Shown here one piece after another: positions 11,269 to 36,954 of a stretch of DNA of 52,200 nt. The first letter of the stretch is position 1; the number at the start of each line of letters is the position of its first letter. Under the pieces are notes generated by a model that saw only the letters and a program-made list of their open reading frames with translations, ran no database searches and was not told where the DNA came from. The DNA is from a virus. Its lineage: Duplodnaviria > Heunggongvirae > Uroviricota > Caudoviricetes. A program made the position numbers and the translations under genes. Where the stretch lies: IMG/VR virus record IMGVR_UViG_3300022660_003821; one strand, given 5' to 3'.

Positions 11269-12188
11269 TATTCTTCAATTTTTAGCGTAATTGCCTCTTT
11301 CCAGGTAAGCAAAGTCTCTTCATCACCTGAACGTGAGCTTTGCTTCAGAAATCCACTATTCGGAACAAAACACCTATCCACTTTGTGCTCATAACTTAAC
11401 ACTTCACCGCCATCTCCATATTGCACTGGAATGAGGTTGTTGTCATCATCATATTGAGCAATGAAAATACCTTGCAAATCACTTGCAATAGTGCTGATAT
11501 GCACATCAACCACATGTTCTGCCCGCTGGATTGCGTCTATAATCTTTTGGGTGTAAATAACACCATCGAAGCTCACATTAGCAATAAAGTCATTTAATGC
11601 GTCTTCTATGTTTTTATAGACTTCCTCTTCACTGATCGCACCGTCATAATATACGGTAACACGAGGTACAAGCACATCGCCTTTACGACTTACAATTGTC
11701 GCATGTGTTCCAGCAAAAGCAATTTGATTGAAGTATGCGCGAATAGCTAACAATTCTTCATCACTTACTCGCTCGTATGCGCCCGGCTCACCAGTAGCAA
11801 TCTTCAACATCAGTTGCTTGTCGTAAAAGCCTGCTTCTTGGTATTCAGAATAGCTAACGCGAGTAATGACTCGTTTGGTCTCGTCAATAGTTGGATAAGA
11901 AAATGCAGTGCCCTCTTCATTCATCTCTAACTCATCTCCACTTTGATATTTCAGCAATGCGTTTGCGTAGTATGCAGCGTTGCCGTTTATACGATTCTGA
12001 AGGTCTTTTGCCAAATCAACCTTGAAAACATCAAGAATATTCTCAAAGGTCCAAATACAGGCAGATGTTACCCAAGTAAACGCATCAATTACCGACATCT
12101 TAGAGCTATTCTGAAACTCAGTCAGCTCTAAGTATTGGTTTCTATAGTTTTTTGCAACTGTATAAATCTCAGTTAATGTACGTGCCAT
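11268..12188 (-). CDS. Baseplate J-like wedge protein
   Basis: Size, synteny and C-terminal VYKNIEDALNDFIANVSFDGVIYTQKIIDAIQRAEHVVDV. Confidence 0.65.
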   Translation of the reverse strand: MARTLTEIYTVAKNYRNQYLELTEFQNSSKMSVIDAFTWVTSACIWTFENILDVFKVDLAKDLQNRINGNAAYYANALLKYQSGDELEMNEEGTAFSYPTIDETKRVITRVSYSEYQEAGFYDKQLMLKIATGEPGAYERVSDEELLAIRAYFNQIAFAGTHATIVSRKGDVLVPRVTVYYDGAISEEEVYKNIEDALNDFIANVSFDGVIYTQKIIDAIQRAEHVVDVHISTIASDLQGIFIAQYDDDNNLIPVQYGDGGEVLSYEHKVDRCFVPNSGFLKQSSRSGDEETLLTWKEAITLKIEE

Positions 12189-13066
12189 TATGATTCTTTT
12201 GTATAAACAATTTCGTTAATCACAAATTTCCATTTACCCGACTCATTCCAAGCAGGCTCATTTATAATTGTTTGAATTGCGGCCATACCAACTTCTGTAG
12301 GCTCCGTATCAAGATAAACAGTACAATCACGTCTGCTACCGTAATTCTCTACAATATTGACTAAATAATTGTCAAGCACACTTACATCGGAAAATTGTAC
12401 TTGCAACAAATTCAGTTCTTGCAAACTCATATTGTAGATGGGGGACAGATCTGAAATGACCATCTTACGCAAATCTACTTTGACAGTGCCGTCAAATAAT
12501 AATAGACCTTTGAGCGAATTACCGTTTGCTTTTGAGACAAATTCATCAACAACAACTGGGCAAATTGTGTACATGTCACCTCTCAATAACGATGTGTCAA
12601 GAGAAAGCAAGTTAAATGTACCATAAATGCGCACTCTCCTTACATCAACTACATTGTCAAAATAATGCAGAAGTCTACGTGACGTATGGGTAAGTTCAAT
12701 GCTCTCCAATTCTGTATTGTCACCCCAGTCAATCACCATAACACCATCACCGCTAACAGTAAAGTCAATAGATTCTTTATCGTTAGGCACTCCACACACA
12801 AAGATTAGCGGCTGGTCGGTAGATTTATAATAAACATGTCGCTGCCCATTAGCCGGCACAAGGTTCTCAGATTTCAATCCTGATACAATACCTTCGTTGA
12901 TCACAAAGTAGTCATGATATTCCAGTTCCATGCCCGGCACAAGATCGGTAGTCATATTTAACTGGGGGTTGCTGATAAGTAAATCAAACACTCCCTCGAT
13001 GGTGCCATATAGCAACATTGCAACATCCCAAATGTTTTGATTAGGAGTTACCTTATGTTTAGCCAT
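12188..13066 (-). CDS. Baseplate/tail protein with N-terminal LysM/tail-X-like motif
   Basis: KVTPNQNIWDVAMLLYGTIEGVFDLLISNP; short LRR-like stretch DLSPIYNMSLQELNL. Confidence 0.55.
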   Translation of the reverse strand: MAKHKVTPNQNIWDVAMLLYGTIEGVFDLLISNPQLNMTTDLVPGMELEYHDYFVINEGIVSGLKSENLVPANGQRHVYYKSTDQPLIFVCGVPNDKESIDFTVSGDGVMVIDWGDNTELESIELTHTSRRLLHYFDNVVDVRRVRIYGTFNLLSLDTSLLRGDMYTICPVVVDEFVSKANGNSLKGLLLFDGTVKVDLRKMVISDLSPIYNMSLQELNLLQVQFSDVSVLDNYLVNIVENYGSRRDCTVYLDTEPTEVGMAAIQTIINEPAWNESGKWKFVINEIVYTKES

Positions 13067-13748
13067 TGTTATCCACGTTTGTAGTATCTAAATCAAGATG
13101 TAAGTCGTTGGTTTCAAAATCATAACTTGCATTATTGACTTTAACACCATCTTCCTCAAATTCACGTTGTAGTACATTAGCCAATGCAGTATGGTCAATG
13201 TTACTCTGGGTCCACCTAATTAGTCCAACACCTGTCAATGGGTAGCGATAACAATTAGTTGGAATACACTTCAGAAGCAAATTAGCATTTTGTCTATTTG
13301 CTTTTACAATATTCATATCGCTTTCAGAACTGGAATACAACTCAACAATACCTCGGTTTAATTTAAGGTAGAATGAGGTTTCTGAAATGGTAAAAAGTTC
13401 TGAAGCATACATATTGGCAAAAGTGCCACCATATTTTGCGGCTTGTACGAGAAACCATTCTGTACCATTTACAGGATTTTGCAGGTATGTATAAGAGCCG
13501 TCTGTATATTCGCGTTTAATGCGAACATAAAACTCCTTATAGATAGGCGTATATGGGATAGTAGTATAGATACCGCCTTTTTTAACCACATCTTCAGATA
13601 AGGTAGCTGGAAGGGTGATTTCACCGTATATATATCTCATCAAGCCAGCATCATTCTCCACCCAATTGAATGGACGGAGAATGAACTTATTGTGCGGAGA
13701 CAGTGTTATGTCTCCTGTATTGATATGTATTTCTATGTCTTTACGCAT
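13059..13748 (-). CDS. Putative baseplate protein (gp25/gpW-like C-terminal part)
   Basis: Synteny; C-terminal YPLTGVGLIRW...LQREFEEDGVKV. Confidence 0.45.
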   Translation of the reverse strand: MRKDIEIHINTGDITLSPHNKFILRPFNWVENDAGLMRYIYGEITLPATLSEDVVKKGGIYTTIPYTPIYKEFYVRIKREYTDGSYTYLQNPVNGTEWFLVQAAKYGGTFANMYASELFTISETSFYLKLNRGIVELYSSSESDMNIVKANRQNANLLLKCIPTNCYRYPLTGVGLIRWTQSNIDHTALANVLQREFEEDGVKVNNASYDFETNDLHLDLDTTNVDNNG

Positions 13749-13754
13749 TGCTTA

Positions 13755-16265
13755 TTAATATCTGGTCGATAAATCATGTTCTGTTCCAAATATATCTGTC
13801 ACTATACACATTGCTCCCCACATATCTATGCAAATCCATCGGGCACAATATACATATTCATCATTAATCCATATATGTCCAGGAACAGCAATAAAACTGG
13901 CATAACCACCACGAATTAAGATTGACGAACACAAATTTTCTTTGCCAAAGTCAGCGTCATAAGACACTTTCGTTGCCAAAGAAGCGTTATTTTCTACTTT
14001 AATTGTCGTTGTACACCATCCGTATGGTTGTCGGGTAAATGGTCCATAATTACAATCGTATATTTTAATTTCTTTTCCAATGTAAGATGCGTCAATTGGT
14101 AATACTATTGTATAATAATGTCTGTCATCTAATTGATAAGGCCATTCGTCCAAATTATAATCAGACACGTCACATACATTCGTCATTAAATACAAATGCT
14201 TATTGATTTTCAACTCTACCTCTGGCTCCACACCAGTATTATCATTGATAGAGTTAATGATAGCGTCAGATTTATATGCAAAATGCAAATGTTGGCTAAA
14301 GCTGCCTAATACTTCAGTATTTCCATCTTTATCCCAAATAATATTTCCATTAGCCAAAGCACCAGAACCATCTTGATTCAAGTACCAAGTACCTGTTGCA
14401 TTCTTAATGTTAGCTGTAGAAATAGTGCCAGCAGTGATATTGTCAGCACTAATCTTACCAGCAAACACCCCTTCAGAATTGACAATGGTGCCACCTAAAT
14501 TGTTCCAACCAATCTTTACGGAATCTGCAAATGTGACATTACCTTGTGCATCCCAACTGATATTACCACCGGCAACAGCACCATCGCCATTGACACCAAA
14601 ACGCCATTTATATCCAAACACACCAACTGGGGAAATTGATATAGAGTCGGCACTTGCTGTAAAACCAGTGACATCTGCAATTGGGGTGCCCGTATAGAGC
14701 AAAGTGTTGTTAAATTTCCATCCAGCAATACTGCTTACGTCATCGCTTTTTAATTTGAATAGTTTTTTGCCATTCAAATCATAAGCTGCAAACTCAGCAC
14801 CAGTATCATTGATATTCATGTATATGCCACCATTAGCATCAATATAATTTTCTAATGCTGTTGAAGCAAGTGAGTTAAAGTTCGCATTCGCGTAAGCAGA
14901 CATGTATAATCCCGTAACAGAACCATCTGACACCAATGCAACATTATTAGTAGAGAGCCTATTTGGATTCAACTTCCAGCCAACAATTTCACCACCATCA
15001 TTAGATGCTGTAAACTTAATCTTACCGCCCATAAATGAAACGTCGCCATTTGAGTCAATGAACCATTTATAACCTCGCAATCCGTTTGTACCAAGTGTGA
15101 TGCTACCGCTTTCAGATGTATATTGCTGGGCGGTATTCATTTTATTGCCTGTCCAAATAGCTGTATCATCAAAGTTCCATCCAGCTATTAAATTTTCCGA
15201 GCCAAGACTGAAAACTTTGTGTTGTTGTACTTCTGCACCGTCTATACCTGTTTGCGGCAGATAGCCAATTAAGCCATAAGATGACGCATTGTCATAATAC
15301 ATAGCAACACCGCCATACATTGCGACCCAACCTTTATGAAAATTAGAATCCCAACCATCTTCTTTTGGAGCACCTTGTGCTGCTACCCCTATATAATTAT
15401 TATTTGCATCAAGGCACATCATATTGCTACGCAACACACCTTCGCCAATATGCCAACCGCCAATTACACCATCTGAAGCCTTAATTGTTCCAGCAAACTC
15501 CGCACTTCCATCTGCATGAAATTTTACATTACCTTTTGCAAATGTAGCATTACCCGATTTATAAAGTCCCCAAATAACATTTCCATCTGCATCGCTGGAA
15601 ATAATGGAACCTTCAGACAGAATTTTTAATGTACCATCCGAAGTCTGAATACCGCCTTTTGCAATCTCCCAGCCACCAATTAAGCCACCATGCTCATTGA
15701 TATGGAAAATATCTTCACCTTGTTTGTAGCCATATATACCAGCCCCATTATCGCTGTCTGGGCCAATGTACACACCAGTTAGAACTGACATGTCGGCCTC
15801 ATTGGTAATCTTTTTGCCGACAAATAATTTAGGTGTAATCAGATACGTACTGCCTATAGTCGTTTTGTTGTTTTCCCAATCCTTAATCCAGTCAAGCATT
15901 GTTGATTCTCGCATGACGGAATACTGGAAGATAACTGTCGCAACAAATTCATCTTCTGTCGCAACTTCCAATGTAAGGGTGCCGGACAAGGCATCTGTTG
16001 GTATAGATTTTATGATTAACCGTTTTGTAGCATCCGTCCCGGCTATCTCATATTCGATTTTATCATTGCTGGGTGTGACAGAATTGATTGTGAATGGGAC
16101 TTTCACGTCTCCACGCACAACCGTAATGTCACTATATGCCTCATCCAAAACAGGATTTGTGCCGTCAAAATCGGCTTTTATAGCGCATACATTAGGGGTG
16201 GCCGACACCGAATAGGCATCGTTCACATTCACTAACGTAATCATTCCTTTTGCTATTGTTGCCAT
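13755..16265 (-). CDS. Tail fibre/spike-like protein with repeated IxGWx(I/F/L) motifs
   Basis: LIGGWEI, VIGGWHI, LIAGWNF, EIVGWKL, SIAGWKF; two G.GA.A.GNI.WD..GN motifs. Confidence 0.7.
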   Translation of the reverse strand: MATIAKGMITLVNVNDAYSVSATPNVCAIKADFDGTNPVLDEAYSDITVVRGDVKVPFTINSVTPSNDKIEYEIAGTDATKRLIIKSIPTDALSGTLTLEVATEDEFVATVIFQYSVMRESTMLDWIKDWENNKTTIGSTYLITPKLFVGKKITNEADMSVLTGVYIGPDSDNGAGIYGYKQGEDIFHINEHGGLIGGWEIAKGGIQTSDGTLKILSEGSIISSDADGNVIWGLYKSGNATFAKGNVKFHADGSAEFAGTIKASDGVIGGWHIGEGVLRSNMMCLDANNNYIGVAAQGAPKEDGWDSNFHKGWVAMYGGVAMYYDNASSYGLIGYLPQTGIDGAEVQQHKVFSLGSENLIAGWNFDDTAIWTGNKMNTAQQYTSESGSITLGTNGLRGYKWFIDSNGDVSFMGGKIKFTASNDGGEIVGWKLNPNRLSTNNVALVSDGSVTGLYMSAYANANFNSLASTALENYIDANGGIYMNINDTGAEFAAYDLNGKKLFKLKSDDVSSIAGWKFNNTLLYTGTPIADVTGFTASADSISISPVGVFGYKWRFGVNGDGAVAGGNISWDAQGNVTFADSVKIGWNNLGGTIVNSEGVFAGKISADNITAGTISTANIKNATGTWYLNQDGSGALANGNIIWDKDGNTEVLGSFSQHLHFAYKSDAIINSINDNTGVEPEVELKINKHLYLMTNVCDVSDYNLDEWPYQLDDRHYYTIVLPIDASYIGKEIKIYDCNYGPFTRQPYGWCTTTIKVENNASLATKVSYDADFGKENLCSSILIRGGYASFIAVPGHIWINDEYVYCARWICIDMWGAMCIVTDIFGTEHDLSTRY

Positions 16266-16342: not shown

Positions 16343-16702
16343 TCACTGAATTTCTTGCAAGAACTGGTCAGCAACCTTCTTTGCGAACCTTCGATATGCT
16401 TGCATCACATTAAATTCTGCAAGAGCCTCTTCGTCATCTTTGTCAAATAGATAATTGTTTACGATGGCTTGCATTTCGTCATCTCGATACTTTTGACGAA
16501 TCAGTGTCGAAATGACAGTATCTCGGTCATATTGTCCGACTGGAAGCGTAACCGTATTGTATCGGAATTTCCTTCCATCTTGCGCCTCTTCTCCACTTAA
16601 TTCCTCAACCTGGAAATTGATTGTGTAAACCTTTTGCCCAAGGTGACGTTCAAAAGTCACAAACGGAGGAGGACAATCTGCGTAATTATAAGTTAAATCC
16701 AT
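16343..16702 (-). CDS. Putative tail-fibre assembly/chaperone-like small protein
   Basis: LIRQKYRDDEMQAIVNNYL...AEFNVMQAYRRFAK resembles small helical proteins that follow fibre genes in Bacteroidales phages; overlaps the RT 3' end by 17 nt. Confidence 0.5.
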   Translation of the reverse strand: MDLTYNYADCPPPFVTFERHLGQKVYTINFQVEELSGEEAQDGRKFRYNTVTLPVGQYDRDTVISTLIRQKYRDDEMQAIVNNYLFDKDDEEALAEFNVMQAYRRFAKKVADQFLQEIQ

Positions 16703-18131
16703 AATCCTCTATAAGTTTTGTTGAGATTTCATATTGTTGCTTTATTTTCACTACCTGACAGCGACCTTTCAAATAGCACACCTTCCAGAAATACTGATAA
16801 TCTGTAAAAGCACCTCGTCTGATACCATAACTGTTACAATGAATCAAAAATCCGAAATAACTATTGATACCGCTGACAGCTCGTTCCAATTGAAGCAAGT
16901 CCATCATGTCTTGCTCATCACTTTCATATATTCGTTTACAAATTTTATCAAGCACCGCTATTGCATTGTACATTGAGCCAATTGTGCGATTGCTTAAATA
17001 TGTTCGATAGCGTTTAATAACACTGCCTACGAACTTTACACCCTTCTTAACTTCTTGCAAATAGAATTTATCAACATGTAACTGGAGATGGAGAGTGTTC
17101 GACAGATAAAGAGCTGCAAGATGATATAAGTCTATAATGTCTTGCTTCTTTGGTCCCGTAATGCAGAAATCATCTACAAACCGAATGTATCTGCAATTCC
17201 TTTTCGCACATTCCTCCAGCATATACTCATCAAAGAACGACATATAGAAATTAGCAAATAACTGACTTGTTAAATTGCCAATCGGCATTCCAGTCATAGG
17301 TTCTGCATAAAACAGACTCTTGTGTTTTGCTAACTTGTCCCATAATGTCAAATCGCCACGTCTTTCGCAATCTTTCTGAGGTGCATGGCGAATTGTTTCT
17401 TGTGTGAGGTATATCAATGTTTCAATATCATCACCATCATAATGCTCACGAATGAATGGGATTAGCAAATCTTCCAACACTTGACAGTCGATGCTCATGA
17501 AAAATGAACGAATATCAAATTTGCCAATATAAGCCTCATATCTATAATGCTTACTGACAATCTTCATGTCCTCACTCAACTTCTCAACAGCCTTGGTTGT
17601 GCCATACTCTTTTCTGCAATTGAATGATACATTGCCTTGTTCCTGGAAGCGTTGTTCAAACAGAGGTTCCAATCGTAAACAAATCCAATGTTGTACAATT
17701 CGATCTCTAAAATTAGCAGCAAAGACTTCTCTCAATTTTGGTCGCGTAACTACAAAGCATGTACTTGTAGTAGGTGTATATGTTCTTGTGATAGCCTCAT
17801 ACGCTAATCTTGGAATGTCTTCTTCTGCAAATAACCTATAAAGCGTACATTGATGACTCGTCTTTTTATGTCTACAACAATCGAAAAAGGCATCTACCCA
17901 ACCTTGGACTTCGTTTTCAAATTCGCACACAGCCCTAACCACGTTACTGTTGTACTTGTTGTTGTTGTTGAAGTTACCATTGGAGAAGTTGACGTTCCAT
18001 GCGTTAGTCTGGTTGTACTCTGAACTACTCCAGCGGTTCGAGGCTGATGCTGCGTGTACTAACTTATTCTTAACTAAATCATGGGATCCAGTGACACGCC
18101 CATTTAATAAACTGAGTCCGCTTACTTTCAT
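16686..18131 (-). CDS. DGR reverse transcriptase; ORF reads in frame through the TR
   Basis: LREVFAANFRDRIVQH, GKFDIRSFFMSID, GMPIGNLTSQLFANFYM (DGR-type), RYIRFVDDF; adjacent to avd and the TR/VR pair. Confidence 0.95.
   Translation of the reverse strand: MKVSGLSLLNGRVTGSHDLVKNKLVHAASASNRWSSSEYNQTNAWNVNFSNGNFNNNNKYNSNVVRAVCEFENEVQGWVDAFFDCCRHKKTSHQCTLYRLFAEEDIPRLAYEAITRTYTPTTSTCFVVTRPKLREVFAANFRDRIVQHWICLRLEPLFEQRFQEQGNVSFNCRKEYGTTKAVEKLSEDMKIVSKHYRYEAYIGKFDIRSFFMSIDCQVLEDLLIPFIREHYDGDDIETLIYLTQETIRHAPQKDCERRGDLTLWDKLAKHKSLFYAEPMTGMPIGNLTSQLFANFYMSFFDEYMLEECAKRNCRYIRFVDDFCITGPKKQDIIDLYHLAALYLSNTLHLQLHVDKFYLQEVKKGVKFVGSVIKRYRTYLSNRTIGSMYNAIAVLDKICKRIYESDEQDMMDLLQLERAVSGINSYFGFLIHCNSYGIRRGAFTDYQYFWKVCYLKGRCQVVKIKQQYEISTKLIEDYGFNL
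17919..18046 (-). repeat. DGR template repeat (TR), 128 bp
   Basis: Aligns without gaps to 18645-18772 (offset 726); 13 AAC/AAT codons and 42 adenines on the coding strand. Confidence 0.97.
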
Positions 18132-18641: not shown

Positions 18642-21600
18642 CTAAAATGCGCACACAGCCCTAACCACGTGACTGCCGTACTTGAGGTAGTAGCTGAAGT
18701 AACCATTGGAGAAGTGGACGAACCATGCGTTAGTCTGGTTGAACTCTGAACTAGTCCAGCGGTACGAGGCTGTATAATTAGCCATGACTGCATTATTGAT
18801 TGCATTAGCAAAAATATTCAAATCAGATGCAAGTCCCTGGCGATAATACCAATACTGCCTTACAAGTTCACCGATAGCTGGGAGATACCAGTTGTGTGCT
18901 TTGAACTTTGGTGCAAGTTCTTCACCATCTGCAACTGTTGGCTCATAAGCATAACAGTAAGAAGCCGCCGGCCAATAATACTGCTGATACTTTGCAGCAT
19001 TACCATTGTTCTCAATGATTTTGCTTATTAGCTCATACAGATTCTCCATCTCTGATTTAGTGCGAACACCATCTTTGAACTGTGCAGCTGGGATAGAAAG
19101 TCCAGCAGCATCAAGAACCTGATTACGATGAGCAATAATACCAAGAGTATGATGCAAACCTGTTGGTGCTTTTTCACCCTCATTAATTCCAGCTCCCGCA
19201 ACTTCAAACATAGAAGAAGTCAAGTCACGAAGCCCAATATCACCTGCACCCGTATTCTCACCTAACCCAGTAACAAAACCATATTTATCACCAGTGTCAG
19301 GATCACGATAGTTGTCGTCTCGAATATAGTTTGGAGAATTGTTTTCCGCAGCATTCTTCAGACCTGTTGAGCCAAAGTTTGTAATTGTAGAAATATCATA
19401 CACATTGGTGATTCCATCAAATGTAATATTGGTAATACCATTTGTGTTATCTCCACTATACAAGCCCCAAGGAATACTTGTAGAAGCATTGTAACCCTTG
19501 ATGTCGTCCAACGCAACCATACGTCTATCAGGTACACCATCTGCACGGTCCGTTTCACCGATATAGAAGCAAATACCGATAGGCGATTTCAGCGGATTCA
19601 ACATATCGCTATATGAGCCATCCGAAAACACATAGTCTCCTAATGCTGCCGGGCGGTCATACAAATACAAGTCTTTCGTTACGGTTAGTGTCTTTTCAGT
19701 GGTAACAATTGTACAAGTCAATTTGACGGTTAAAGCAGTTTCACTAATCTTATTTACTGTCACTTCACCCGTTCTTGGGTCCACTGACGCATAAGAAGAC
19801 GTTGGCATAGACCATTCCAGCGAAACAAAGTTGTTTGCGTTAGGACTATTTGGAATGATAGTAAACTTTCTCACATCAGCTGAACGGAAAGTATTATCGC
19901 CACCAATCTGAGCACTGTTAATAGAACGCTGTACATACGAAATACGAAGTGGGTTGGTTTCATTGTCGATATTGCCAAACTTCTCAATCAATGCCTTTTT
20001 AAGTTCAAAGGTCATATATTCAGTAGAAGCAAGCGATATGGTACCTGTAATATGAACATTTGGAATATTCACAAGCCAATTTAAGAAATCAGCAGTAACA
20101 TTTTCCCAGGCCACATCACGTACAGCCAACTTGGTCAATTTGCGATTCTCGTCTGTCTCATTGTGTTTTGCATCATACAACTCTGCAATCGTATTATACA
20201 AATCTAATGTACCGACATTATCACCAATAACAAACGATGTCAAATAACTGTATGCGTCAAGTGTCAACAGTGATAAGCTGGGCAGATCCTTAATTTCCAA
20301 CTCTGTCAAATACCCACCGAGTCTCACTTCAGACAGCAACTTAGCTGTTGGGAAAATAACAGAAGTAATCTTCGTACCACGAACATCCATTTTTAACAAA
20401 CGAATACTTCCACTGATGTCCAATTGACCTCCAAGTAAACTTTCACCATTAAGGTTCAACGATGTAATCAATGGTGTATTTACATTCAATCTACTTGGAC
20501 GGAACTCTGGATTGCCTGTTGGGGTTGCAACAATCTCAACAAGACGTTGGCCATTAATGGTAAAATCGTTTGTGGGGTTAACAGACAAATCACCCAAGTT
20601 ACCAAATGAACGATAATAGTTACCGCCTTTCAAACCGCATACAGTATCACCTAATGCTCCACTGTCATCTACAACAAAATGATACACCTCTTTTGGTGCT
20701 ACGCGAACATGAGGGTTGCGTAATGTTTGACCAACACGTGCGGTAGGATATAGATACTGATGAGGTACCACATCCAACACTACGGTAGGGCTACTACCAT
20801 CAATACGAGGATAAGTGTTGAAACCAAAACCGTTATCACCTGTCAAACTGAACTCTCCATAAGCTGCATACGAAGACATATATACCAAACGGCGTTTCAT
20901 ATACTGTCTCTCAGAAGCTAACTGATCTCCCAAAGACTGTGTAATAGGCTTAACGCTACGGTCAGACACAAACTTCAATGATGTGGGGTACTCGTAACGA
21001 ATACGAGCAGTCTCATTATACGCAACTGCTGGGAAGTATTCTTGAATTGCGAAAAAATATTTCTCCAGTGCGCCCCATGCAGATTTTTCTAACCCCTTCT
21101 TCTGGTCTTCAGCAGTAATTAAATCTGCCATAGAAGTCAAGATTGTATTCATCATCTCTGCTAACTCTGTAGTTCCGTTTTCCCACATCAACTCCATCAA
21201 GTTAAAGAGCACATTGCCGCCACCTTCAGTGTAAAGCAACTCGCCGGCATCAGAGTATGGGTGCATTCTATCAATATAGTATGGCTTAATCTGATAACCA
21301 GAGTTATTTGTCTTAAAGATAGTGTCCAAGTCATCTTGATGGGCCTCAATTAAGTGTGTGATAGGATCAAGAACCCAATATGTATTCTTAGAGTTGTTAT
21401 CAGTACCGGCTAAGAAATGGTTGACAAATGCGTAATGGAACATCAGCGATTTTACATTGAAGTATTCGCCGATAGTAGCCTTTGCATCAGCAACAATCGC
21501 AGCAATGAACGCAGAGTTAATTTCATCCCACGCACCTGCCGACAAACCATTCATGGCATTCGGATATAAGGTGTTAAGATTTTTAGTCTGGTAAATGCCG

Positions 21601-24600
21601 CCAATATTCAAACCTGCTGGAACCCATGTCTTGTTGATGAAATCATAACGATATACGTCATATATCGCAGCTCCACCTCCAGCACGTGTCATCCAATATT
21701 GCTTTTCGGTATTAACTGAAGTGTCTTCTAAGAATGCTTCAAGATTTCCATCTGTATATGGAAGAATCATTGGACAGTGCATGAACGCCCAGTTCCACGC
21801 TTCTTTATAATACTCTACAATATTGTCAAGTGGTTGGTCGGCTACATGACCTTCATCATCATCCTCTTCATACACCAAACCTGCATCAAAGTCCAAGCAG
21901 CCATCACCGTTGTACTCGAAATACTCTTCCTTGACGTTATAGGTTACATTGTCATCCCAAGGCACACGCATATCGGTTAGAGGCTTGTTATTATCAGAGC
22001 CTTCTAACATTGCAAAATCTGCATGTTCCGGGTTCTCATCATCATAACCCCAAGTTGGCTTATCCATTTTGCCGGGGCCAAATGTTCCCAATCCATGAAA
22101 TACAGGCTCGGTATCTTCTGGAGTCTGCAAGAAGTACAGGAATGGACGTTCCAATACAGTTACACGTGCTTTAGGGTCTGCTTTTTGTAATGAGTTCTTA
22201 CCAACAATAGCGGTATGTAACAAGTTATACAACTCAGTAGCACCTTGCTTATGGCTCTGCATTGAAGACGCATAGTTAATTTTCAATACCAACTTTTTAG
22301 CGGCTGGAACATCAGCGGAAAGCTGATACTTCATGCCATGATCAACGCCATTGCCGTCAACCCAGCCATCGTCTTTAATTTTATCGCCATTGCCGTCAAC
22401 TGTTTTGTTGACATCCCACTGAGGATTCCACCAGAAATAAGTTTTAGCGGTAGAGCCTTGGCCTTTACATGGCAATAACCCATACTTCTTACCAATAGTA
22501 CCACTATATTCGTTATTTGGTGTACCGTCAGGATTCAACTGAGAAATTTCAAGCCAACCTTTCTGACTATCTTGATTTGTGTGGTTAGGTTCATAACCAT
22601 GCCATACAAGCACATTGTATTTCTCCTTTGCCTTCTTGTAGCTGATAACACCATTTTCCATAATGTCATTAGCATCGCGGAACGCAATTTTTTCTGCCGA
22701 AGTGGGTAAGGTACTCATATAGTCTTTCATACACTCGTCAGCAGAAAGCACCTTCTTGTAGCATCTGATAGAATAGATGTCAATATCAGCATCTTCCTGA
22801 CCAATACGAATGCCGCCATGACCAGCACTTGTGATAAACTCATTTGCGTTAGTTATTTCAAATGGGAACTCACGATTGATTACACCATTAATGAAAATGC
22901 GCACTAAAGCGACTGTTTCCGTACTGGTGGTTGAAGAACGTAAAGCATGAACGACATTGATTGCAATATGGGTACGCACACCCTCTTCCCAACTAAAGTT
23001 CTGGTCTGCTTCAATAGCTGAACTACGAGTAAACAAGAAACCATCAAGAGGGCGCATATATAAACCAAGTGGCAATCCTGTTGCGGCAACCAATGAACAG
23101 ATTTGGATAATTGGATCTACCTCATTGGTGATGTTGTGTACAGCAAAGTCAAATTCCAGTGTCATACTGGAAGCCGTATTGGTCTTAAATGCTTCAAACG
23201 GCTCGTATGGAATAGTCAGATATTGCCCTGCAAGAATACGCAACACACGCTGCCCATCCTTAGCAGCAACCCAGCCGTCATTAACAAATCCAAAATTCTC
23301 AAATTTTGCTCCGGGTAATTCAACATTGTCCTTTGCAGCATTGAGAATACGGTCTGGAGCGATCTCACTATTATTGCGAATTTTAGGGTTCAAAAAGAAA
23401 TCTGCACCACTTGTAGGACTGAATTTTTCTTTGTTATCAACATTGATAATTGCGATAGAAGAACCTGTACTTTCAAGCAAGAAATCTTGATATGTCTCGC
23501 CGTCTTTGCGATATACGTGCAAATATCCATACACAATATCATCTGTGTCGTTCTCAATCTCTACAGTCGTGATAAATGAATATTGTTGCTGAGGTGAGGC
23601 TTCATCTTCAACGCGCAAATACTCATTACTTTCAGAATCATCAGTCAACACAAACGCCAACTCCATATTCTCCCCAGAAGGGTTATATATGGCGTAATCG
23701 AACAAATTGGTTTGTTCATAGTTGGTAACATCTAACTTCAAGTTTTGAAGCAAAAGGTAAGGTGTCATATCTGAAGCATCTCTCACAACCATAATAGAAT
23801 TTGTGATATGCTCAGATTCAAGACTTGCACCATCGCCATCAACACAAGTAAGCCATGACTCTACTGTGTGTACACCATGAGTCAACAGTTTCACTGCCTG
23901 AGTTGATGAGTCTGTAATTGACTGTGTAGTATATGTTGAAGTTGTATATGTGCCGGTGCCAATAGGATATTCAATTTCACGAATACCGCCTTCACCACTG
24001 ATCTTCAAGTGCAATGTCTTTGATACACCAGCTCCATATATATAGTATGAGAACTGTAAATAATCATTGGTAACTGGAAGATGATAGTCTGTGGCCATTT
24101 CCAGTCTCAAAGATGTCAATACTACTGAATCAAAAATGATATAGTTAGACGGAGAACCAAATGATTCATCAACAACATACACACGCACACGGTTAGCACC
24201 TGTTGCCAAATATTCCGTAATATCAATTTCATCATAGTTAGCAGTTGCACTCTTTGATGCTAAAGCCATTGAACCTTTCGTTACCCACTGACCATTCTCA
24301 TAGGTTTGGATATACAGCGTACCACTGTTACCTGTATCATATCCACCTGTTGTACTGGTAAATAAAAGATGCAATACAAGCGAGCCGGTAATACTTACCA
24401 GGTTCGTTGTACTATCTGTGGTTTTCAAAAGAATTTCTGTTCCTTCTGCGGTGTACGGAAGAGTAACTGCTCCGTCAGCATTAGGGGTGTAAGTCTGGCT
24501 ACCCATAATTACACTCTTCACGCTTTTTTGATTTTCTTGCACAGCTGCAACCAGTCTCTTAAACTCCTCTGCCGTCAATTTCTCATTGGCTGGAATGCTC

Positions 24601-24665
24601 TCTGTGGCTGCTTGCTGGCTGGCATTGTTCTGTTTGTTAAGCAGATCTGAAATGTCTGTTGCCAT
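18642..24665 (-). CDS. DGR target: giant tail/receptor-binding protein (LamG-like, CotH-like kinase, LRR, Ig-like, C-terminal C-type-lectin/DUF1566-like VR domain)
   Basis: VR at the C-terminus; WYLPAIGEL...W.SSE...AW.V.F CLec-type motif; THIAI...IFINGV...IRIG...IYSIRCY LamG-like motif; KGQGST, DNNSKNTY and QDDLDT kinase-like motifs. Confidence 0.85.
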   Translation of the reverse strand: MATDISDLLNKQNNASQQAATESIPANEKLTAEEFKRLVAAVQENQKSVKSVIMGSQTYTPNADGAVTLPYTAEGTEILLKTTDSTTNLVSITGSLVLHLLFTSTTGGYDTGNSGTLYIQTYENGQWVTKGSMALASKSATANYDEIDITEYLATGANRVRVYVVDESFGSPSNYIIFDSVVLTSLRLEMATDYHLPVTNDYLQFSYYIYGAGVSKTLHLKISGEGGIREIEYPIGTGTYTTSTYTTQSITDSSTQAVKLLTHGVHTVESWLTCVDGDGASLESEHITNSIMVVRDASDMTPYLLLQNLKLDVTNYEQTNLFDYAIYNPSGENMELAFVLTDDSESNEYLRVEDEASPQQQYSFITTVEIENDTDDIVYGYLHVYRKDGETYQDFLLESTGSSIAIINVDNKEKFSPTSGADFFLNPKIRNNSEIAPDRILNAAKDNVELPGAKFENFGFVNDGWVAAKDGQRVLRILAGQYLTIPYEPFEAFKTNTASSMTLEFDFAVHNITNEVDPIIQICSLVAATGLPLGLYMRPLDGFLFTRSSAIEADQNFSWEEGVRTHIAINVVHALRSSTTSTETVALVRIFINGVINREFPFEITNANEFITSAGHGGIRIGQEDADIDIYSIRCYKKVLSADECMKDYMSTLPTSAEKIAFRDANDIMENGVISYKKAKEKYNVLVWHGYEPNHTNQDSQKGWLEISQLNPDGTPNNEYSGTIGKKYGLLPCKGQGSTAKTYFWWNPQWDVNKTVDGNGDKIKDDGWVDGNGVDHGMKYQLSADVPAAKKLVLKINYASSMQSHKQGATELYNLLHTAIVGKNSLQKADPKARVTVLERPFLYFLQTPEDTEPVFHGLGTFGPGKMDKPTWGYDDENPEHADFAMLEGSDNNKPLTDMRVPWDDNVTYNVKEEYFEYNGDGCLDFDAGLVYEEDDDEGHVADQPLDNIVEYYKEAWNWAFMHCPMILPYTDGNLEAFLEDTSVNTEKQYWMTRAGGGAAIYDVYRYDFINKTWVPAGLNIGGIYQTKNLNTLYPNAMNGLSAGAWDEINSAFIAAIVADAKATIGEYFNVKSLMFHYAFVNHFLAGTDNNSKNTYWVLDPITHLIEAHQDDLDTIFKTNNSGYQIKPYYIDRMHPYSDAGELLYTEGGGNVLFNLMELMWENGTTELAEMMNTILTSMADLITAEDQKKGLEKSAWGALEKYFFAIQEYFPAVAYNETARIRYEYPTSLKFVSDRSVKPITQSLGDQLASERQYMKRRLVYMSSYAAYGEFSLTGDNGFGFNTYPRIDGSSPTVVLDVVPHQYLYPTARVGQTLRNPHVRVAPKEVYHFVVDDSGALGDTVCGLKGGNYYRSFGNLGDLSVNPTNDFTINGQRLVEIVATPTGNPEFRPSRLNVNTPLITSLNLNGESLLGGQLDISGSIRLLKMDVRGTKITSVIFPTAKLLSEVRLGGYLTELEIKDLPSLSLLTLDAYSYLTSFVIGDNVGTLDLYNTIAELYDAKHNETDENRKLTKLAVRDVAWENVTADFLNWLVNIPNVHITGTISLASTEYMTFELKKALIEKFGNIDNETNPLRISYVQRSINSAQIGGDNTFRSADVRKFTIIPNSPNANNFVSLEWSMPTSSYASVDPRTGEVTVNKISETALTVKLTCTIVTTEKTLTVTKDLYLYDRPAALGDYVFSDGSYSDMLNPLKSPIGICFYIGETDRADGVPDRRMVALDDIKGYNASTSIPWGLYSGDNTNGITNITFDGITNVYDISTITNFGSTGLKNAAENNSPNYIRDDNYRDPDTGDKYGFVTGLGENTGAGDIGLRDLTSSMFEVAGAGINEGEKAPTGLHHTLGIIAHRNQVLDAAGLSIPAAQFKDGVRTKSEMENLYELISKIIENNGNAAKYQQYYWPAASYCYAYEPTVADGEELAPKFKAHNWYLPAIGELVRQYWYYRQGLASDLNIFANAINNAVMANYTASYRWTSSEFNQTNAWFVHFSNGYFSYYLKYGSHVVRAVCAF
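18645..18772 (-). repeat. DGR variable repeat (VR) at the 3' end of the 2007-aa gene
   Basis: 16 mismatches to the TR: 15 at TR adenines and one G>C. VR reads SYRWTSSEFNQTNAWFVHFSNGYFSYYLKYGSHVVRAVCAF; TR reads SNRWSSSEYNQTNAWNVNFSNGNFNNNNKYNSNVVRAVCEF. Confidence 0.97.
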
Positions 24666-24813: not shown

Positions 24814-27270
24814 TTAGAAGATAACCGGGAACGTGTATGGGAATACTGAGCTACCGTTTTGTAATTCACAAATGAATAAGTCAGAACCGCTAATCCTATA
24901 TCCGAGTGTAATAGATTGTTGTGTGCGGTCTATTGCTTCTTGTATCAAGTTACCGTCTCCATCATATTGCTCTTGAAACCAGGTCGTGTCCTCATTTTCA
25001 ATATCTGGAAGGTTATATTTTTTCCATACAAAGGTGAAGTTCTCAGCAACAAATTCATCGTCAACCAAATTGCCTTGATAATACACCGATGCCCTCAAAG
25101 TTGTGGCACACTTGCCATTTTTGAAAGAATCGCCCTGTGTTGAACTTACCTTTACCGTATAACCAAGGATATATTGCTTACGAATGGTAAATGTGTCAAT
25201 ATAGACATTAGTTCCAATCGTGACTTCACATTTAACTGTCAATACGCTACTGTCATTCCAATACTTACCATCAGGAAGGATTGTTAATGTTTTAGCATTA
25301 GCATTAGAAAATTTAACCCACTCATCATCCTTCAAATAATACCATTTTCTTTGACTTGATGTAGAAGTGATATTCTCCTCTGTCATTGTCAGCAATATTG
25401 ACTGCGGGTATAATTGGGTTGATGAGGAAGAATCATCACCAAGCAAGGTAAACGTGTCAGCACCTGTGATACGAATTGATTTTGATACAACCGCCTGTTG
25501 AAAAGAAGAACCAAGGTTGTGCCAATTCAAAGTTACTTCATCACCAAACACCACTTTCCCGTCAGCTCCCCAAGAAATGTTTTTATTAGCCAAATAACCA
25601 GAGCCATCCGTGCGTAACAAAAACGAGTTGGTACGTGTACCAATACTACCTTCTCCATCAAAGTTCAATTGCAGCAATGGATTCTGAATTGTTCCTCCAA
25701 TACCACCTCGATTAAACCAAGCACCATAGTCTTCTGTGAAATTTAATATTTCATCTGTTGGCTGGTATTGTGTGACTGTTTTACCCAACTCTAACTGTGG
25801 CGCAGTAAAATAAAGCAATGGCTCATCTGGCACAACCTCATCTTGTGCAACAATACTACTATCGTCTGAAATAGCATCAGAATCAGATTCGGTAAACATA
25901 GGATGAATAGAGAGTATGAGGTCCTCACCATCTGCATCAATCAGATTAAATGGGACACTCAACCTGTGCCACCCATGAGTCTCGGTATTATACACCTGTA
26001 AAATGCCTACAAGATGTCCATTCTGGGAAATTTCTAATTGACATGGGGATTTTGCGTATGTCCAAAACGAGAAACAATAACCCTTATCAATACGCTTCGC
26101 CAGCCAATCTGCATTCTGCGCAATCATTTCCACCTTATCTGTAATTGTATAGACATTACCCATACCAGTAGGATTGGCAACTGTATCATTGATGACTATC
26201 GCATTTGTAAAATTGACATCCAATGAGTTGAGAAACGCATTGCGATGTATTTTACCTGCATAGAATGTAGAGCCAAATCCATTTTCATCCCCAGCAGTCA
26301 AAGTACCAGAAATATGGGCTGATGCAGAAGCAAACAGTTTTTGTAGATACCCGCCATATCCGTCTAATTTCCCAAATACAGGGTCAGATATACCACTCAG
26401 CTTACCAATCCTCATCTGGCTTGCGTCCATAAAATTTGCCACACTGGATAGCAAAATTATGTTCAGGTCTGCAATCCATACTTCATCATTAGCTGCCATA
26501 GAGGACAAATCTAACTTAAATGAACGCAAATGTCTTCCAGACCAATCAACAGTAATCGCATGTAATTTATATTGCCATTCTGTAGTGATGTGAACATCAA
26601 CCGAGCCGTCTATACGCACATCGTCTATATAGCCTAACGATGCTGTAGCAGACAAAGGTGTCGATGCCTTAACCTTATAGGAAATCAATACTCTATTCGG
26701 ATTTGCCACATATTGATAGAAATCTTGTTTCAATCCAACAAACCCATCATACGGAGTATCATCTCGCTGAATATGGCAAATTCTGGAGTGCTCTGTATCA
26801 TTTCGTGTATAGTCACACGCAACACATTCAGTACCATATACAACATATTGTGATGTAGAATCTATTTGTTCTGTATTAGCAATGTTTTCCGGCCAACACA
26901 AACTCGCATTTCTACCAATACCATCAATAATGTCCATATATGGAGCTTGATCATCGCTTGCTGTTAAATACAATGCACCAGATCTATTCAAGTCGAACAA
27001 GTTGGTAATTCTTGCAAAATCAAGAATCTCACTTGTTTTTGGGACATCACCCTCCAATAAGGCTCCAATAAAATATGGTTGCTCTTGTACGACATTGTTC
27101 TCATCTACAATCTTATCAACGCCATAATCCAAAACGCACATAAGAGAATAGATGAGATTCTTGCCGTCAAAATATTGCCTTCTGACTATATCGCCAGTTT
27201 TTAACCCTTGTGTTTTCTTTGTGTCATAACGAAGGGATATACGATACTTCTTATAATCAAAAACAGCCAT
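24814..27270 (-). CDS. Tail/baseplate-associated structural protein
   Basis: In the tail module; contains QLELGKTVTQYQP (CBM-like end motif) and GSGYLANKNISW, shared with the 836-aa fibre. Confidence 0.6.
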   Translation of the reverse strand: MAVFDYKKYRISLRYDTKKTQGLKTGDIVRRQYFDGKNLIYSLMCVLDYGVDKIVDENNVVQEQPYFIGALLEGDVPKTSEILDFARITNLFDLNRSGALYLTASDDQAPYMDIIDGIGRNASLCWPENIANTEQIDSTSQYVVYGTECVACDYTRNDTEHSRICHIQRDDTPYDGFVGLKQDFYQYVANPNRVLISYKVKASTPLSATASLGYIDDVRIDGSVDVHITTEWQYKLHAITVDWSGRHLRSFKLDLSSMAANDEVWIADLNIILLSSVANFMDASQMRIGKLSGISDPVFGKLDGYGGYLQKLFASASAHISGTLTAGDENGFGSTFYAGKIHRNAFLNSLDVNFTNAIVINDTVANPTGMGNVYTITDKVEMIAQNADWLAKRIDKGYCFSFWTYAKSPCQLEISQNGHLVGILQVYNTETHGWHRLSVPFNLIDADGEDLILSIHPMFTESDSDAISDDSSIVAQDEVVPDEPLLYFTAPQLELGKTVTQYQPTDEILNFTEDYGAWFNRGGIGGTIQNPLLQLNFDGEGSIGTRTNSFLLRTDGSGYLANKNISWGADGKVVFGDEVTLNWHNLGSSFQQAVVSKSIRITGADTFTLLGDDSSSSTQLYPQSILLTMTEENITSTSSQRKWYYLKDDEWVKFSNANAKTLTILPDGKYWNDSSVLTVKCEVTIGTNVYIDTFTIRKQYILGYTVKVSSTQGDSFKNGKCATTLRASVYYQGNLVDDEFVAENFTFVWKKYNLPDIENEDTTWFQEQYDGDGNLIQEAIDRTQQSITLGYRISGSDLFICELQNGSSVFPYTFPVIF

Positions 27271-29051: not shown

Positions 29052-30016
29052 TATTTCTGAACTTGTACTTTCTTAGTTAAGAATCCACTATGAGCAGATT
29101 TGAACGAGTCTATCTTTGCCTTCAGGGATATAAAACTGGCCATATTAGCTGGCGGTTGTGGTCCCATCATTGTTGGTGTCATGATTTGTCCTATATATCC
29201 AACCAATTCTGACAATATGGTAGCTAACTCTACACCTAACACAGCGTCATCGGTTCCAGAATCGCTACCGAGATAAACTGTACCATCTTCAATTTTTACT
29301 TTTGAATTACCAAACTGGGAAAGGTGCTGTTCCTCATCTAAAATTGTTTCTGCCTTATTATGTTTCAGATGAATTTGTTCTTGATCCATCATCATAGAAC
29401 TTTTGTCATCACCAATCACAGTTTCAACCTTTTCGCTATCCATCACGTGCTTGGTATGATTAGCATCATCTTCACCTTGCACTTCAGTAGTGATTGAATC
29501 TTTGAGGTAAGTCGTTTTGGAGAACACTCCAGTTTCTTCCAAGTCTTGAATATCTGGAGAGTTTTCATCGCTTTCGTCAAATTCTTCACGTTCTGTTACA
29601 CCAACTGTTATCGTATCATGAGAATCCAATTGAATAACATCAACATGAGAAAACATTGAAACATACTCTGTTTTTGTCTCCGGGTCTATTGAAATAGTTA
29701 CTTCTGAATATAATTTCGGTATAATCAGAAGTCCTTTGGAATTATCTTGTAATGCACTAAGATATACACCCTCATGATAACCGATTTTTTTATCTTCGGT
29801 TTCTTCCATTGAAAGGCTATAATATTCTTGCACATCAACGGTGCCTGCCAGTTCGCCATCAGTATGGATTTTAGCAACATACCCGGTTACTTTACCAGTA
29901 TCTTTCAGAACACCATCTTGATTGATGATACCATGCCATGCAATCTTCCTAATCGCGTCACGAATAGCCTGATTTGAACTCAAATCTGGTCTTTTATTTT
30001 TGCTCATTGCTTTCAA
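29051..30016 (-). CDS. Baseplate spike/gpV-like protein
   Basis: N-terminal OB-fold-like strand pattern, beta-repeat middle, C-terminal DDAVLGVELATIL; position after the hub gene. Confidence 0.6.
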   Translation of the reverse strand: MKAMSKNKRPDLSSNQAIRDAIRKIAWHGIINQDGVLKDTGKVTGYVAKIHTDGELAGTVDVQEYYSLSMEETEDKKIGYHEGVYLSALQDNSKGLLIIPKLYSEVTISIDPETKTEYVSMFSHVDVIQLDSHDTITVGVTEREEFDESDENSPDIQDLEETGVFSKTTYLKDSITTEVQGEDDANHTKHVMDSEKVETVIGDDKSSMMMDQEQIHLKHNKAETILDEEQHLSQFGNSKVKIEDGTVYLGSDSGTDDAVLGVELATILSELVGYIGQIMTPTMMGPQPPANMASFISLKAKIDSFKSAHSGFLTKKVQVQK

Positions 30017-31427
30017 GTTTATCTTTTGCTATACAATATGGTAGCTTGATTCGTTGACGATAGCCACTTACGCCAAATGTTGTATGAACCTCATCTACTA
30101 AATAATAGCCATTCTTTTGTGGATATAGTTTGTCATTCAGATGAACTTTTGTGCCTGTTTTCAAAGCCAAATCTCCAAATAAGGTTAAAGTTCCCTCAAT
30201 ACCATTCATGTTATAGCTCTCAAAATATTTAATGGCCTCTTCCAGTAAAGCATCATGGCTGATACCTATTTTACGCGACATGTATGGAATTACCGTATAT
30301 GTACTCAAATCAACCTTATCCTTTGATTTGCTGAAACAGGTGGCTCCAAGTTTACGCGCCTTCTTCGAGATTGTAGTTTCGTTCATTACTTGCCATTTAT
30401 CTTTTGTAGGCTTGGATTCATCCCAATTAGGATTACGTCTTATAGTAATGTGATAAAACTTGTCCTGAGTATCTAAGCATGTGGCTTCAACAGCCAAGAA
30501 TGCTTTATCGGTATTCATGAGCGTTAATCCATTATTCGCTACATGATAGTCGAATAAAATTTCTGGAATTTCAGATGAATCGTCTCTGATAACCGAATCC
30601 TTGCCAGCGTTTGAAAAGTATGAACGACCTACTGCGATATATGGCGTATCTCCATTATATTTGATGTAAGCGAACACCTTATATTTCCCCCATTCAGTTA
30701 ATACATCAGCAACAGTTAAGTCAGTTGTTAAACCCACTTTGCCAATATTAATTTCACAAGACTTAGTGTCTGGATGCAAACTAAGCCCGGTGTTTTCAAG
30801 CAATTTGTACTTACCATCAGCGGCCAAAAAATCATTGACCGTCATGTTCTTGGATGCTGGAACTTTTGGACACGAGATTTTTTTAAGACCACTGGCGAGA
30901 TTTTCACATTTGATTTCAATGGGCGTATCAATGCTACATTTAGTTATATAGCCATCAAACATTGTAGTCAAGTGATTTTTATATTCAGCTAATTTACCAG
31001 TGTCATTGTGTATAGACTTACCATCTTTATCAATTTTGGCCAAAGCTGCAATTTTAGGGTCTGTCGTATAACCCAACATAATGCGAATACGGGAACCGAC
31101 CTTAAAGTCTGTTACCTCAGCTTTTTTAGAATTGGTGCGAGTAGTAACAAGCACACCAGTATCTTCTACTGTCGCAGATACTTTTGAACTGTATTCTGCA
31201 CCATTCAATTCAGTAATCGTCTTTTTAATAACGGTGCCACGAGGAAATTTGACAGAAGCCGTACCGATTAATTTTCGGTACGACTCTTCGATTTCTATGT
31301 TTTCCACCTCTGTAATCAAACGGGGGCTGGAAGGTTCCTCCATTGGCTTTTTAGGGTCAGCCAAATCCCATATCTGAATCAAACAAATGAGAATATGGAA
31401 ACTCGGTTGGTTTTTAATCGCTGCCAT
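29994..31427 (-). CDS. Baseplate hub (Mu gp44/P2 gpD-like)
   Basis: MFDGYIT..IEIKCENLA and C-terminal GTLTLFGDLALKTG...GYYLVDEVHTTFGVSGYRQRIKL. Confidence 0.7.
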   Translation of the reverse strand: MAAIKNQPSFHILICLIQIWDLADPKKPMEEPSSPRLITEVENIEIEESYRKLIGTASVKFPRGTVIKKTITELNGAEYSSKVSATVEDTGVLVTTRTNSKKAEVTDFKVGSRIRIMLGYTTDPKIAALAKIDKDGKSIHNDTGKLAEYKNHLTTMFDGYITKCSIDTPIEIKCENLASGLKKISCPKVPASKNMTVNDFLAADGKYKLLENTGLSLHPDTKSCEINIGKVGLTTDLTVADVLTEWGKYKVFAYIKYNGDTPYIAVGRSYFSNAGKDSVIRDDSSEIPEILFDYHVANNGLTLMNTDKAFLAVEATCLDTQDKFYHITIRRNPNWDESKPTKDKWQVMNETTISKKARKLGATCFSKSKDKVDLSTYTVIPYMSRKIGISHDALLEEAIKYFESYNMNGIEGTLTLFGDLALKTGTKVHLNDKLYPQKNGYYLVDEVHTTFGVSGYRQRIKLPYCIAKDKLESNEQK

Positions 31428-36150: not shown

Positions 36151-36171
36151 TGTTTATTGAATTATGTTTCT

Positions 36172-36202
36172 GAAGAATAGAGCCTACGAGAACATTTTGG
36201 TT
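36172..36202 (-). promoter_or_regulatory. Late-promoter motif AAC-N19-CTATTCTTC ahead of the tape measure
   Basis: gaagaatag 36172-36180; gtt 36200-36202. Confidence 0.65.
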
Positions 36203-36255
36203 AATAAAAGAATGCCCCATTACCAAGAAAGAGGCAATGGGGCAAAAAGGAGATG

Positions 36256-36824: not shown

Positions 36825-36856
36825 AATATTCTCGATAAATTTGTGAATGTTTTATA

Positions 36857-36885: not shown

Positions 36886-36891
36886 TGAAAA

Positions 36892-36919: not shown

Positions 36920-36954
36920 CACGATAAACACTTTATCTAACAATTATGGAACGA

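Follow-up and report, generated by a model that had tools for sequence, protein, structure and literature searches.

Phages of gut Bacteroidales carry giant proteins of about 2000 residues in which a CotH domain is combined with Laminin_G or other carbohydrate-binding modules, leucine-rich repeats (LRRs) and a C-terminal C-type lectin (CLec) domain that contains the variable repeat (VR) of a diversity-generating retroelement (DGR). Under the name "category f1," Wu et al. (2018, PMC5758913) reported 13 DGRs in phage contexts, whose ~2000-residue targets combine CotH and Laminin_G_3 motifs with a CLec3 VR; Roux et al. (2021, bioRxiv 2020.04.01.020958) described the target cluster PC_00012 with a CotH-like kinase, suggested a contact between kinase and VR, and proposed a manipulation of host signaling pathways. 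Benler (2021, PMC8008677) is also among the papers describing giant CotH DGR targets, and Macadangdang et al. (2024, bioRxiv 2024.11.15.621889) reported a Bacteroides "domain group 3" of >2000 residues with CotH active-site motifs, carbohydrate-binding motifs, and LRRs. A cultivation study from 2025 (PMC12694917) found ~2000-residue multi-domain DGR targets in isolated temperate Bacteroides phages and considered them potential tail proteins. The gene analyzed here lies on the minus strand of a 52,200-nucleotide stretch of tailed-phage DNA (IMG/VR record IMGVR_UViG_3300022660_003821, class Caudoviricetes; the window below is this whole stretch) and is one uninterrupted open reading frame (ORF) of 2007 residues. 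No architectural difference separates it from the f1, PC_00012, and group 3 proteins, of which it is a divergent member. With a probability of roughly 85%, a figure that does not extend to its enzymology, it is the DGR target of a temperate tailed phage, a gut Bacteroidales-type prophage, and encodes a giant modular protein of the tail module. The original prediction, made from the DNA sequence alone, had put the gene forward as the window's best candidate for a new system; the first four of these reports already describe this fusion, and homologues occur in Hankyphage and BS-TP1, so that the gene adds a well-preserved example of a known, abundant, and functionally unstudied family and not a new kind of system.

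The DGR target of Hankyphage (Bacteroides phage p00, BK010646; 2245 residues, record positions 31489–38226) is colinear with the present protein, with residues 344–897 matching the N-terminal and LamG regions (E = 7e-8) and a second match spanning the kinase C-lobe and LRR (E = 6e-11), in which the D..KN and DxD motifs are kept; it differs in sharing an identity of only 21–23%. The gene order is the same in both phages, running from the tape measure through the hub, minor tail, and giant target genes to a small ORF, a template repeat (TR), and a reverse transcriptase (RT). The original paper on Hankyphage, which is described as globally ubiquitous, presented the target as a C-type-lectin protein whose function was unknown, made no mention of a kinase domain, and noted that many DGR targets resemble a Bacteroides ovatus pilin tip with a C-type lectin fold. 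Another homologue is gp27 of the cultured temperate Bacteroides phage BS-TP1 (PQ571274), with 28.5% identity over 97% of the kinase segment and a similar setting, preceded by baseplate-hub and tail-fiber genes and followed by a four-helix-bundle protein and an RT. BS-TP1 differs in being a 112-kb phage, in the annotation of gp27 as hypothetical, and in an Avd-like protein unlike the 131-residue ORF of the present locus; its target is described in PMC12694917 as a ~2000-residue multi-domain tail-related DGR target.

The spore-coat Ser/Thr kinase CotH of Bacillus (5JD9/5JDA; PF08757) shares with the phage domain the whole fold, the catalytic Asp and Asn, the DxD motif, and a 23-residue spacing between catalytic and metal-binding Asp residues. 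The phage domain differs in its 8–12% structure-based identity, in its insertions, in falling below the Pfam threshold, and in being embedded in a 2007-residue protein, whereas Bacillus CotH is a free enzyme of ~360 residues. The Bacillus subtilis enzyme phosphorylates the spore-coat proteins CotB and CotG, CotB on serine-rich repeats (PMC7821199), which does not bear out the earlier statement that CotH kinases act extracellularly. No CotB- or CotG-like partner was identified for the phage protein. At the other end of the polypeptide, the comparison is with Mtd of phage BPP-1, a receptor-binding protein that likewise has a C-terminal C-type-lectin VR, a TR and RT, and adenine-specific changes. 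Mtd itself is small, only a few hundred residues long, and is not known to carry enzyme, LRR, or LamG modules, and the present lectin tip is of the Lcl_C/4EPS type, unlike that of Mtd. The best matches of the tip, the fimbrial protein 4EPS and the adhesin 8Q4E, are cellular, non-phage-tail proteins without a kinase.

The central domain and its active-site residues

An AlphaFold2 model of residues 680–1330, built on an alignment of 41 homologous segments, was obtained with high confidence (pLDDT 90.8, pTM 0.91). When this model was used in a Foldseek search, only Bacillus cereus CotH (5JD9/5JDA) was significant (E = 1.3e-5, probability 1.0, TM score 0.64 by target). Superposition on 5jd9 with VIA-align gave a Z score of 23.5 and a root mean square deviation (r.m.s.d.) of 3.9 Å over 341 of the 358 CotH residues, spanning residues 682–1268 of the phage protein, with PI4KII (Z 10.9) and HipA/HipT (Z 8.6) as the runner-up families. 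The modeled phage domain therefore corresponds to a whole CotH kinase with ~250 residues of insertions. When the ESM Atlas was searched by shape with the same model, it returned CotH-annotated clusters from viruses and Bacteroidota, among them cellular Bacteroidota proteins in which CotH is fused to BACON, ricin-B lectin, dockerin, and Por secretion tails. The central domain thus has, in a confident model, the fold of CotH specifically, in agreement with the kinase fold expected for this region.

Sequence comparisons within the family point the same way. CotH was the only recurrent Pfam family among the homologous segments (13 of 41, best E = 2.4e-5), and the curated cut-off of PF08757 is exceeded by a giant ORF of 2302 residues (L086) from a Muribaculaceae genome (25.1 versus 23.8 bits). 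NCBIfam gave no match for the kinase segment or for either flank. A match of the family profile to cofilin (E = 0.01, catalytic-loop region) was rejected as chance, being a short, motif-level match to an unrelated fold that is contradicted by the structure search.

The putative active site was located by comparison with a reference set of 36 genuine CotH domains from Bacteroidota and from a second phylum, to which a related locus had led; the majority of these domains score ~200 bits or more against PF08757. Their consensus contains the segments "rGntS...Kksfk," "gnwD.y...knn.Yly," and "iPyDyDntlg." An hhalign comparison of the phage-family profile with these domains was significant (E = 1.6e-4), and its high-confidence block equates Asp1089 with the Asp of "nwD," Asn1094 and Tyr1096 with "n.YLY," and Asp1112 and Asp1114 with "wDyD." The corresponding hhalign comparison with only the four full-length cellular CotH proteins was not significant, nor was an hmmsearch of a four-sequence CotH profile against 151 family proteins, although in the latter the motifs fell at the expected sites. 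In B. subtilis CotH, the substitutions D228Q and D251A each yield an inactive enzyme (PMC7821199); the 23 residues that separate Asp1089 from Asp1112 equal the distance between these two residues. The order of elements in the model, a helix, the catalytic loop, two short strands, and the DxD motif, is that of a kinase core.

These residues are the most strictly conserved in the family. Asp1089, Lys1093, Asn1094, Asp1111, Asp1112, and Asp1114 are invariant in all 151 family representatives, among which overall identity falls to ~32%, and Tyr1096 is present in 150. Toward the N terminus of the domain, Lys795, Asn797, and Ser800 are invariant in 144 of 144 representatives and Gln736, Gly737, and Asn747 in 143 of 143. 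The catalytic-loop Asp and Asn and the metal-binding DxD are consequently in place and under absolute conservation, indicative of purifying selection. The four motifs on which the kinase assignment had been based (the three listed in Table 1 and LVLKINYASS at residues 792–801) lie where they had been placed, and the catalytic Asp and Asn residues proposed within them are those found invariant.

Flanking domains and the diversity-generating retroelement

From the N to the C terminus, the protein consists of a β-rich N-terminal region, a LamG-like region, the CotH domain, an LRR domain, a Big_2 immunoglobulin (Ig)-like domain, and the C-type lectin domain with the VR (Table 1). The whole protein matches two PHROG families, phrog_24896 (5.9e-100) and phrog_14959 (2e-38), both of unknown function. 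Residues 1–439 gave no significant Pfam or NCBIfam match, and no N-terminal hydrophobic signal sequence is apparent on direct reading of the translation; this region is presumed to provide tail attachment and the shaft. Single, sub-threshold matches to Kelch, AbiJ_NTD4, and Glyco_hydro_2_N were disregarded. For the region that follows, homologues gave sub-threshold matches to Laminin_G_3 (1 of 19, E = 0.008) and to the Sialidase N-terminal lectin (2 of 19), and 81 of 100 language-model neighbors were Laminin_G_3 clusters (score 0.93), an assignment that agrees with the description by Wu et al.

A second AlphaFold2 model, of residues 1331–2007 (pLDDT 88.1), resolves three domains. The first resembles LRR proteins, including YopM (Z 10.2), LIC12234 (Z 10.0), and LRR-Ig proteins, and its homologues match the Pfam families LRR_4 (5 of 19) and LRR_EndoS (4 of 19). 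The second superposes on the Big_2 domain 7quz (Z 10.4, r.m.s.d. 2.3) and also on Ig domains of lambda gpV, T5 pb6, and the phi29 capsid; Big_2 was found by Pfam in 2 of 19 homologues. The third, the lectin tip, exceeds the Pfam cut-off for Lcl_C when searched as a sub-sequence (6.5e-09, 36.5 bits versus 34.9), a match shared by 13 of 19 homologues, and is structurally similar to 4EPS (B. ovatus BACOVA_04982; Z 13.7 over 197 residues, 17% identity) and 8Q4E (the C-terminal domain of Legionella Lcl; Z 10.1, 27% identity).

The VR comprises the last codons of the target gene and is matched by a TR 726 nucleotides downstream. Of the 16 mismatches between the two 128-nucleotide repeats, 15 fall at TR adenines; all differences are at codon positions 1 or 2, and 12 codons are altered between residues 1968 and 2006. 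The one non-adenine mismatch, at position 18754 in codon 1971, is a G in the TR and a C in the VR, and may be an ordinary point mutation gained after retrohoming. A G+C-rich 3′ end of ~20 nucleotides is identical in both repeats, at the place where the initiation of mutagenic homing sequence would sit. Adenine-specific mutagenesis by the RT/TR cassette has thus rewritten the last ~40 codons of the target, and the ligand-binding face of the lectin tip is therefore hypervariable; judging from its sequence, the DGR looks active. The RT ORF as called begins upstream of the TR, which supplies its first ~70 codons, and because the TR is carried at its 5′ end the true start probably lies downstream of position 17919. 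An apparent match of residues 20–68 of this ORF to Lcl_C and adhesins is the translated TR and is spurious. Between the target gene and the TR lies an ORF of 131 residues, the typical size of Avd, which gave no Pfam, PHROG, or NCBIfam match and had no BLASTP similarity to the four-helix-bundle protein of BS-TP1.

The DGR with its lectin VR, the LRR (expected at ~1375–1530 and found within the larger domain listed in Table 1), and the Ig-like domain of the original prediction are accordingly borne out, the domains by structure and the DGR by its adenine-specific mismatches and adjacent RT. The LamG-like segment expected at residues ~500–650 does lie inside the region delimited here, which has weaker support.

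Distribution and genomic context

An exhaustive homologue search with residues 680–1330 as query, clustered at 50% identity, yielded 440 representative clusters, nearly all of proteins of ~2000 residues; the closest of these shares 76% identity with the present protein in the kinase segment. In a scan of representative prokaryote genomes, 112 loci were confirmed, overwhelmingly in gut and rumen Bacteroidales, of which 80 were kept and 63 had enough downstream sequence for a DGR to be sought. In 25 of these 63 the DGR signature was strict, defined as a repeat of 70 nucleotides or more in which TR adenines account for at least 80% of the mismatches, and ~12 more had a TR-like repeat at the canonical distance of ~600–800 nucleotides. 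At ~26 of the 63 loci (L062–L077 and others) no TR-like repeat was found within 6 kb downstream, and these include all Bacteroides species loci, at 28–30% identity. The kinase-bearing core is thus kept with and without a DGR, the diversified lectin being one of several possible tips, and this retention argues for a function of the core that is independent of the variable tip.

Five loci of the genome scan, including the closest at 74–75% identity, come from metagenome-assembled genomes labeled Eggerthellaceae, Eubacteriales, Staphylococcus, Akkermansia, or Saccharibacteria (L002, L003, L024, L026, and L029); most likely, phage contigs were mis-binned there into unrelated genomes, and the labels do not point to true hosts. 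Four cellular CotH proteins of host-type Bacteroidales (L082–L085) start with signal sequences resembling those of lipoproteins, in which a hydrophobic stretch ends in Cys, and probably lie in the periplasm or at the cell surface, whereas the phage protein lacks a signal.

In the window, the target gene belongs to a tightly packed, same-strand tail module that runs from the tape measure through two baseplate-hub-like genes and a tail protein to the target and the DGR. A tyrosine integrase marks a temperate phage or prophage and lies at one prophage end; the SNF2/helicase-family protein encoded beyond it could be a product of the host or of a different element. Downstream of the DGR, six more ORFs on the same strand (8972–16265, minus strand; 836, 229, 292, 306, 176, and 588 residues) gave no significant Pfam match, and the 836-residue product, the one scanned against PHROGs, had none there; they may be further tail or fiber components. 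BS-TP1 likewise has a large hypothetical gene after its RT. Within the tape measure, residues ~100–140 are of low complexity and rich in Ser, Arg, and Gly, with 12 Ser among 40 residues; no other Ser-rich segment of note was seen in the phage ORFs of the window. A megablast search against a phage collection returned no close relative.

Table 1. Features of the giant target protein, its retroelement, and the surrounding genes, with positions in the 52,200-nucleotide window.
Feature	Residues	Window positions	Strand	Basis or remarks
Giant DGR target gene (variable protein, tail module)	2007 aa	18642..24665	-	One uninterrupted ORF
N-terminal region, β-rich, unknown fold	1-439	23349..24665	-	Conserved in homologues
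LamG/concanavalin-A-like lectin region	~440-680	22626..23348	-	Sequence support weak
CotH-type atypical protein kinase domain (predicted)	682-1268	20862..22622	-	AlphaFold2, Foldseek, VIA-align, hhalign
KGQGSTAK, probable glycine-rich nucleotide-binding loop	734-741	22443..22466	-	Weak hhalign match and conservation
GTDNNSKNTY, predicted catalytic loop (D1089, K1093, N1094, Y1096)	1087-1096	21378..21407	-	Conservation and CotH alignment
HQDDLDTIF, predicted metal-binding DxD, DFG-equivalent (D1111, D1112, D1114)	1109-1117	21315..21341	-	Conservation and CotH alignment
LRR domain	~1337-1572	19950..20657	-	AlphaFold2 model and homologue Pfam
Big_2-type Ig-like domain	~1578-1670	19656..19934	-	Structure and homologue Pfam
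C-type-lectin-fold tip (Lcl_C type) with VR	~1670-2007	18645..19655	-	Pfam and structure
Variable repeat (VR)		18645..18772	-	Last codons of target ORF; 88% identical to TR
Candidate Avd	131 aa	18150..18545	-	Between target gene and TR; typical size
Template repeat (TR)		17919..18046	-	128-nt direct repeat, 726 nt downstream of VR; 42 adenines/128 nt
DGR reverse transcriptase (ORF as called)		16686..18131	-	RVT_1 5.9e-10 at aa 133-370; phrog_1423 1.6e-66
Tail protein		24814-27270		
Baseplate-hub-like		29994-32449		
Tape measure		32449-36150	-	
Tyrosine integrase		6174-7406	-	Arm-DNA-bind_5, Phage_int_SAM_5, Phage_integrase
SNF2/helicase-family protein	1081 aa	602-3847	-	Beyond integrase

Possible activity, substrate, and site of action

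The protein is likely to be a tail fiber or receptor-binding protein, whose tip would decide what the phage sticks to. Its CotH domain would bind ATP and Mg/Mn and transfer phosphate, and a working phosphotransferase appears somewhat more probable than a dead scaffold. Where such a kinase would act is more tentative. One possibility, not strongly favored, is that it acts in the cytoplasm of the infected cell during tail assembly, with itself or other virion proteins as substrates, a site preferred because ATP is present there and because CotH phosphorylates structural proteins of the spore coat, another self-assembling shell. More speculatively, the Ser-rich stretch of the tape measure might be a substrate, since CotB is phosphorylated on serine-rich repeats. 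Action at the host surface after adsorption is unlikely, and less likely than cytoplasmic action; the idea comes from the lectin modules on either side and from the CotH proteins of cellular Bacteroidota, which are extracytoplasmic and fused to glycan modules. More doubtful still is a live virion kinase for which the DGR lectin tip would serve as a programmable targeting module, a self-retargeting enzyme phosphorylating changing host-surface proteins or glycans at adsorption or penetration; if true, this would be a mode of phage-host interaction without characterized precedent.

Several observations weigh against this reading of the gene and its product. The protein itself scores only 9.8–9.9 bits against the Pfam CotH model (E = 0.66–0.69), below the 23.8-bit cut-off, in a match of residues 1059–1122 to model positions 158–220 that does include the putative catalytic motifs. 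Solved CotH chains were not reached by whole-protein phmmer, by the 41-sequence family profile, or by a profile of four Bacteroidales CotH sequences. In the N-lobe, the best local hhalign match, of KGQGST to the "rGntS" loop of CotH, is weak (E = 0.046), and two invariant lysines, Lys795 and Lys866, are candidates for the ATP-binding residue. The 131-residue ORF is a candidate Avd by position only. The virion location is drawn solely from the position of the gene in the tail module, so that the designation "virion protein" in the original prediction was too firm, and outside the cell a virion would meet little ATP, a difficulty for any kinase that is to act at adsorption. A literature search returned no functional, proteomic, phosphoproteomic, or enzymatic study of any family member.

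Some of these points could equally indicate that the CotH fold is non-catalytic, a pseudokinase able to bind nucleotide or else a ligand at a surface, or simply a stiff spacer within the fiber. In addition to the weak N-lobe similarity, the ambiguous lysine, and the lack of activity evidence in the literature, the ~250 residues of insertions and the binding modules on both sides (LamG on one, LRR, Ig, and lectin on the other) would suit such a role, and CotH proteins of Mucor have been treated as spore-formation and virulence factors (PMC9973265). Against this stands the absolute conservation of the active-site residues, which stay invariant while the rest of the domain drifts and are retained by Hankyphage at ~23% identity. 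A pseudokinase would typically have lost one or another of these residues, be it the catalytic Asp, the Asn, or the metal-binding Asp. A pseudokinase role is therefore disfavored and, although the best supported of the alternatives, is judged rather improbable.

An active enzyme might instead use a non-protein substrate or another chemistry, phosphorylating host capsule, lipopolysaccharide, or another glycan at the cell surface, or carrying out an AMPylation-type transfer, while the lectin domains hold the glycan. Kinase-fold glycan kinases and AMPylating enzymes are established, and the position of the kinase between carbohydrate-type binding modules would fit such an arrangement. So would the cellular CotH proteins of Bacteroidota, since the fusions to BACON, ricin-B lectin, dockerin, and Por tails together with the lipoprotein-like signals of the four Bacteroidales proteins indicate that these proteins are extracytoplasmic and glycan-associated. 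However, the only characterized CotH enzymes are Ser/Thr protein kinases (PMC7821199) and an extracellular supply of ATP is doubtful, which leaves this explanation unlikely.

That the protein never enters the virion but remains within the infected cell or lysogen to manipulate host signaling, as Roux et al. proposed for PC_00012, is very unlikely, given that the gene directly follows the hub and tail genes in the tightly packed, same-strand tail module, in an order common to BS-TP1 and Hankyphage, that the protein has no signal peptide, that its Big_2 domain resembles Ig domains decorating phage tail and capsid proteins, and that a DGR lectin tip is a receptor binder in the one studied phage case, BPP-1 Mtd (PMC2408619).

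A tail-borne protein with a probably active CotH domain thus remains the preferred reading, and its implications reach across a very large family, which extends through 440 clusters at 50% identity to members as distant as the Hankyphage target. Throughout, the most conserved part of these giant proteins is the predicted kinase active site. Because cultured phages with homologues exist (BS-TP1 and others, PMC12694917), the kinase question is experimentally addressable, and the present gene provides mutation targets at the level of single residues, namely Asp1089, Asn1094, Asp1112, and Asp1114. Should the kinase prove active, no enzyme of its type would have been demonstrated on a phage tail before, and an extra step would be added to the assembly of abundant gut phages or to their engagement of the host.

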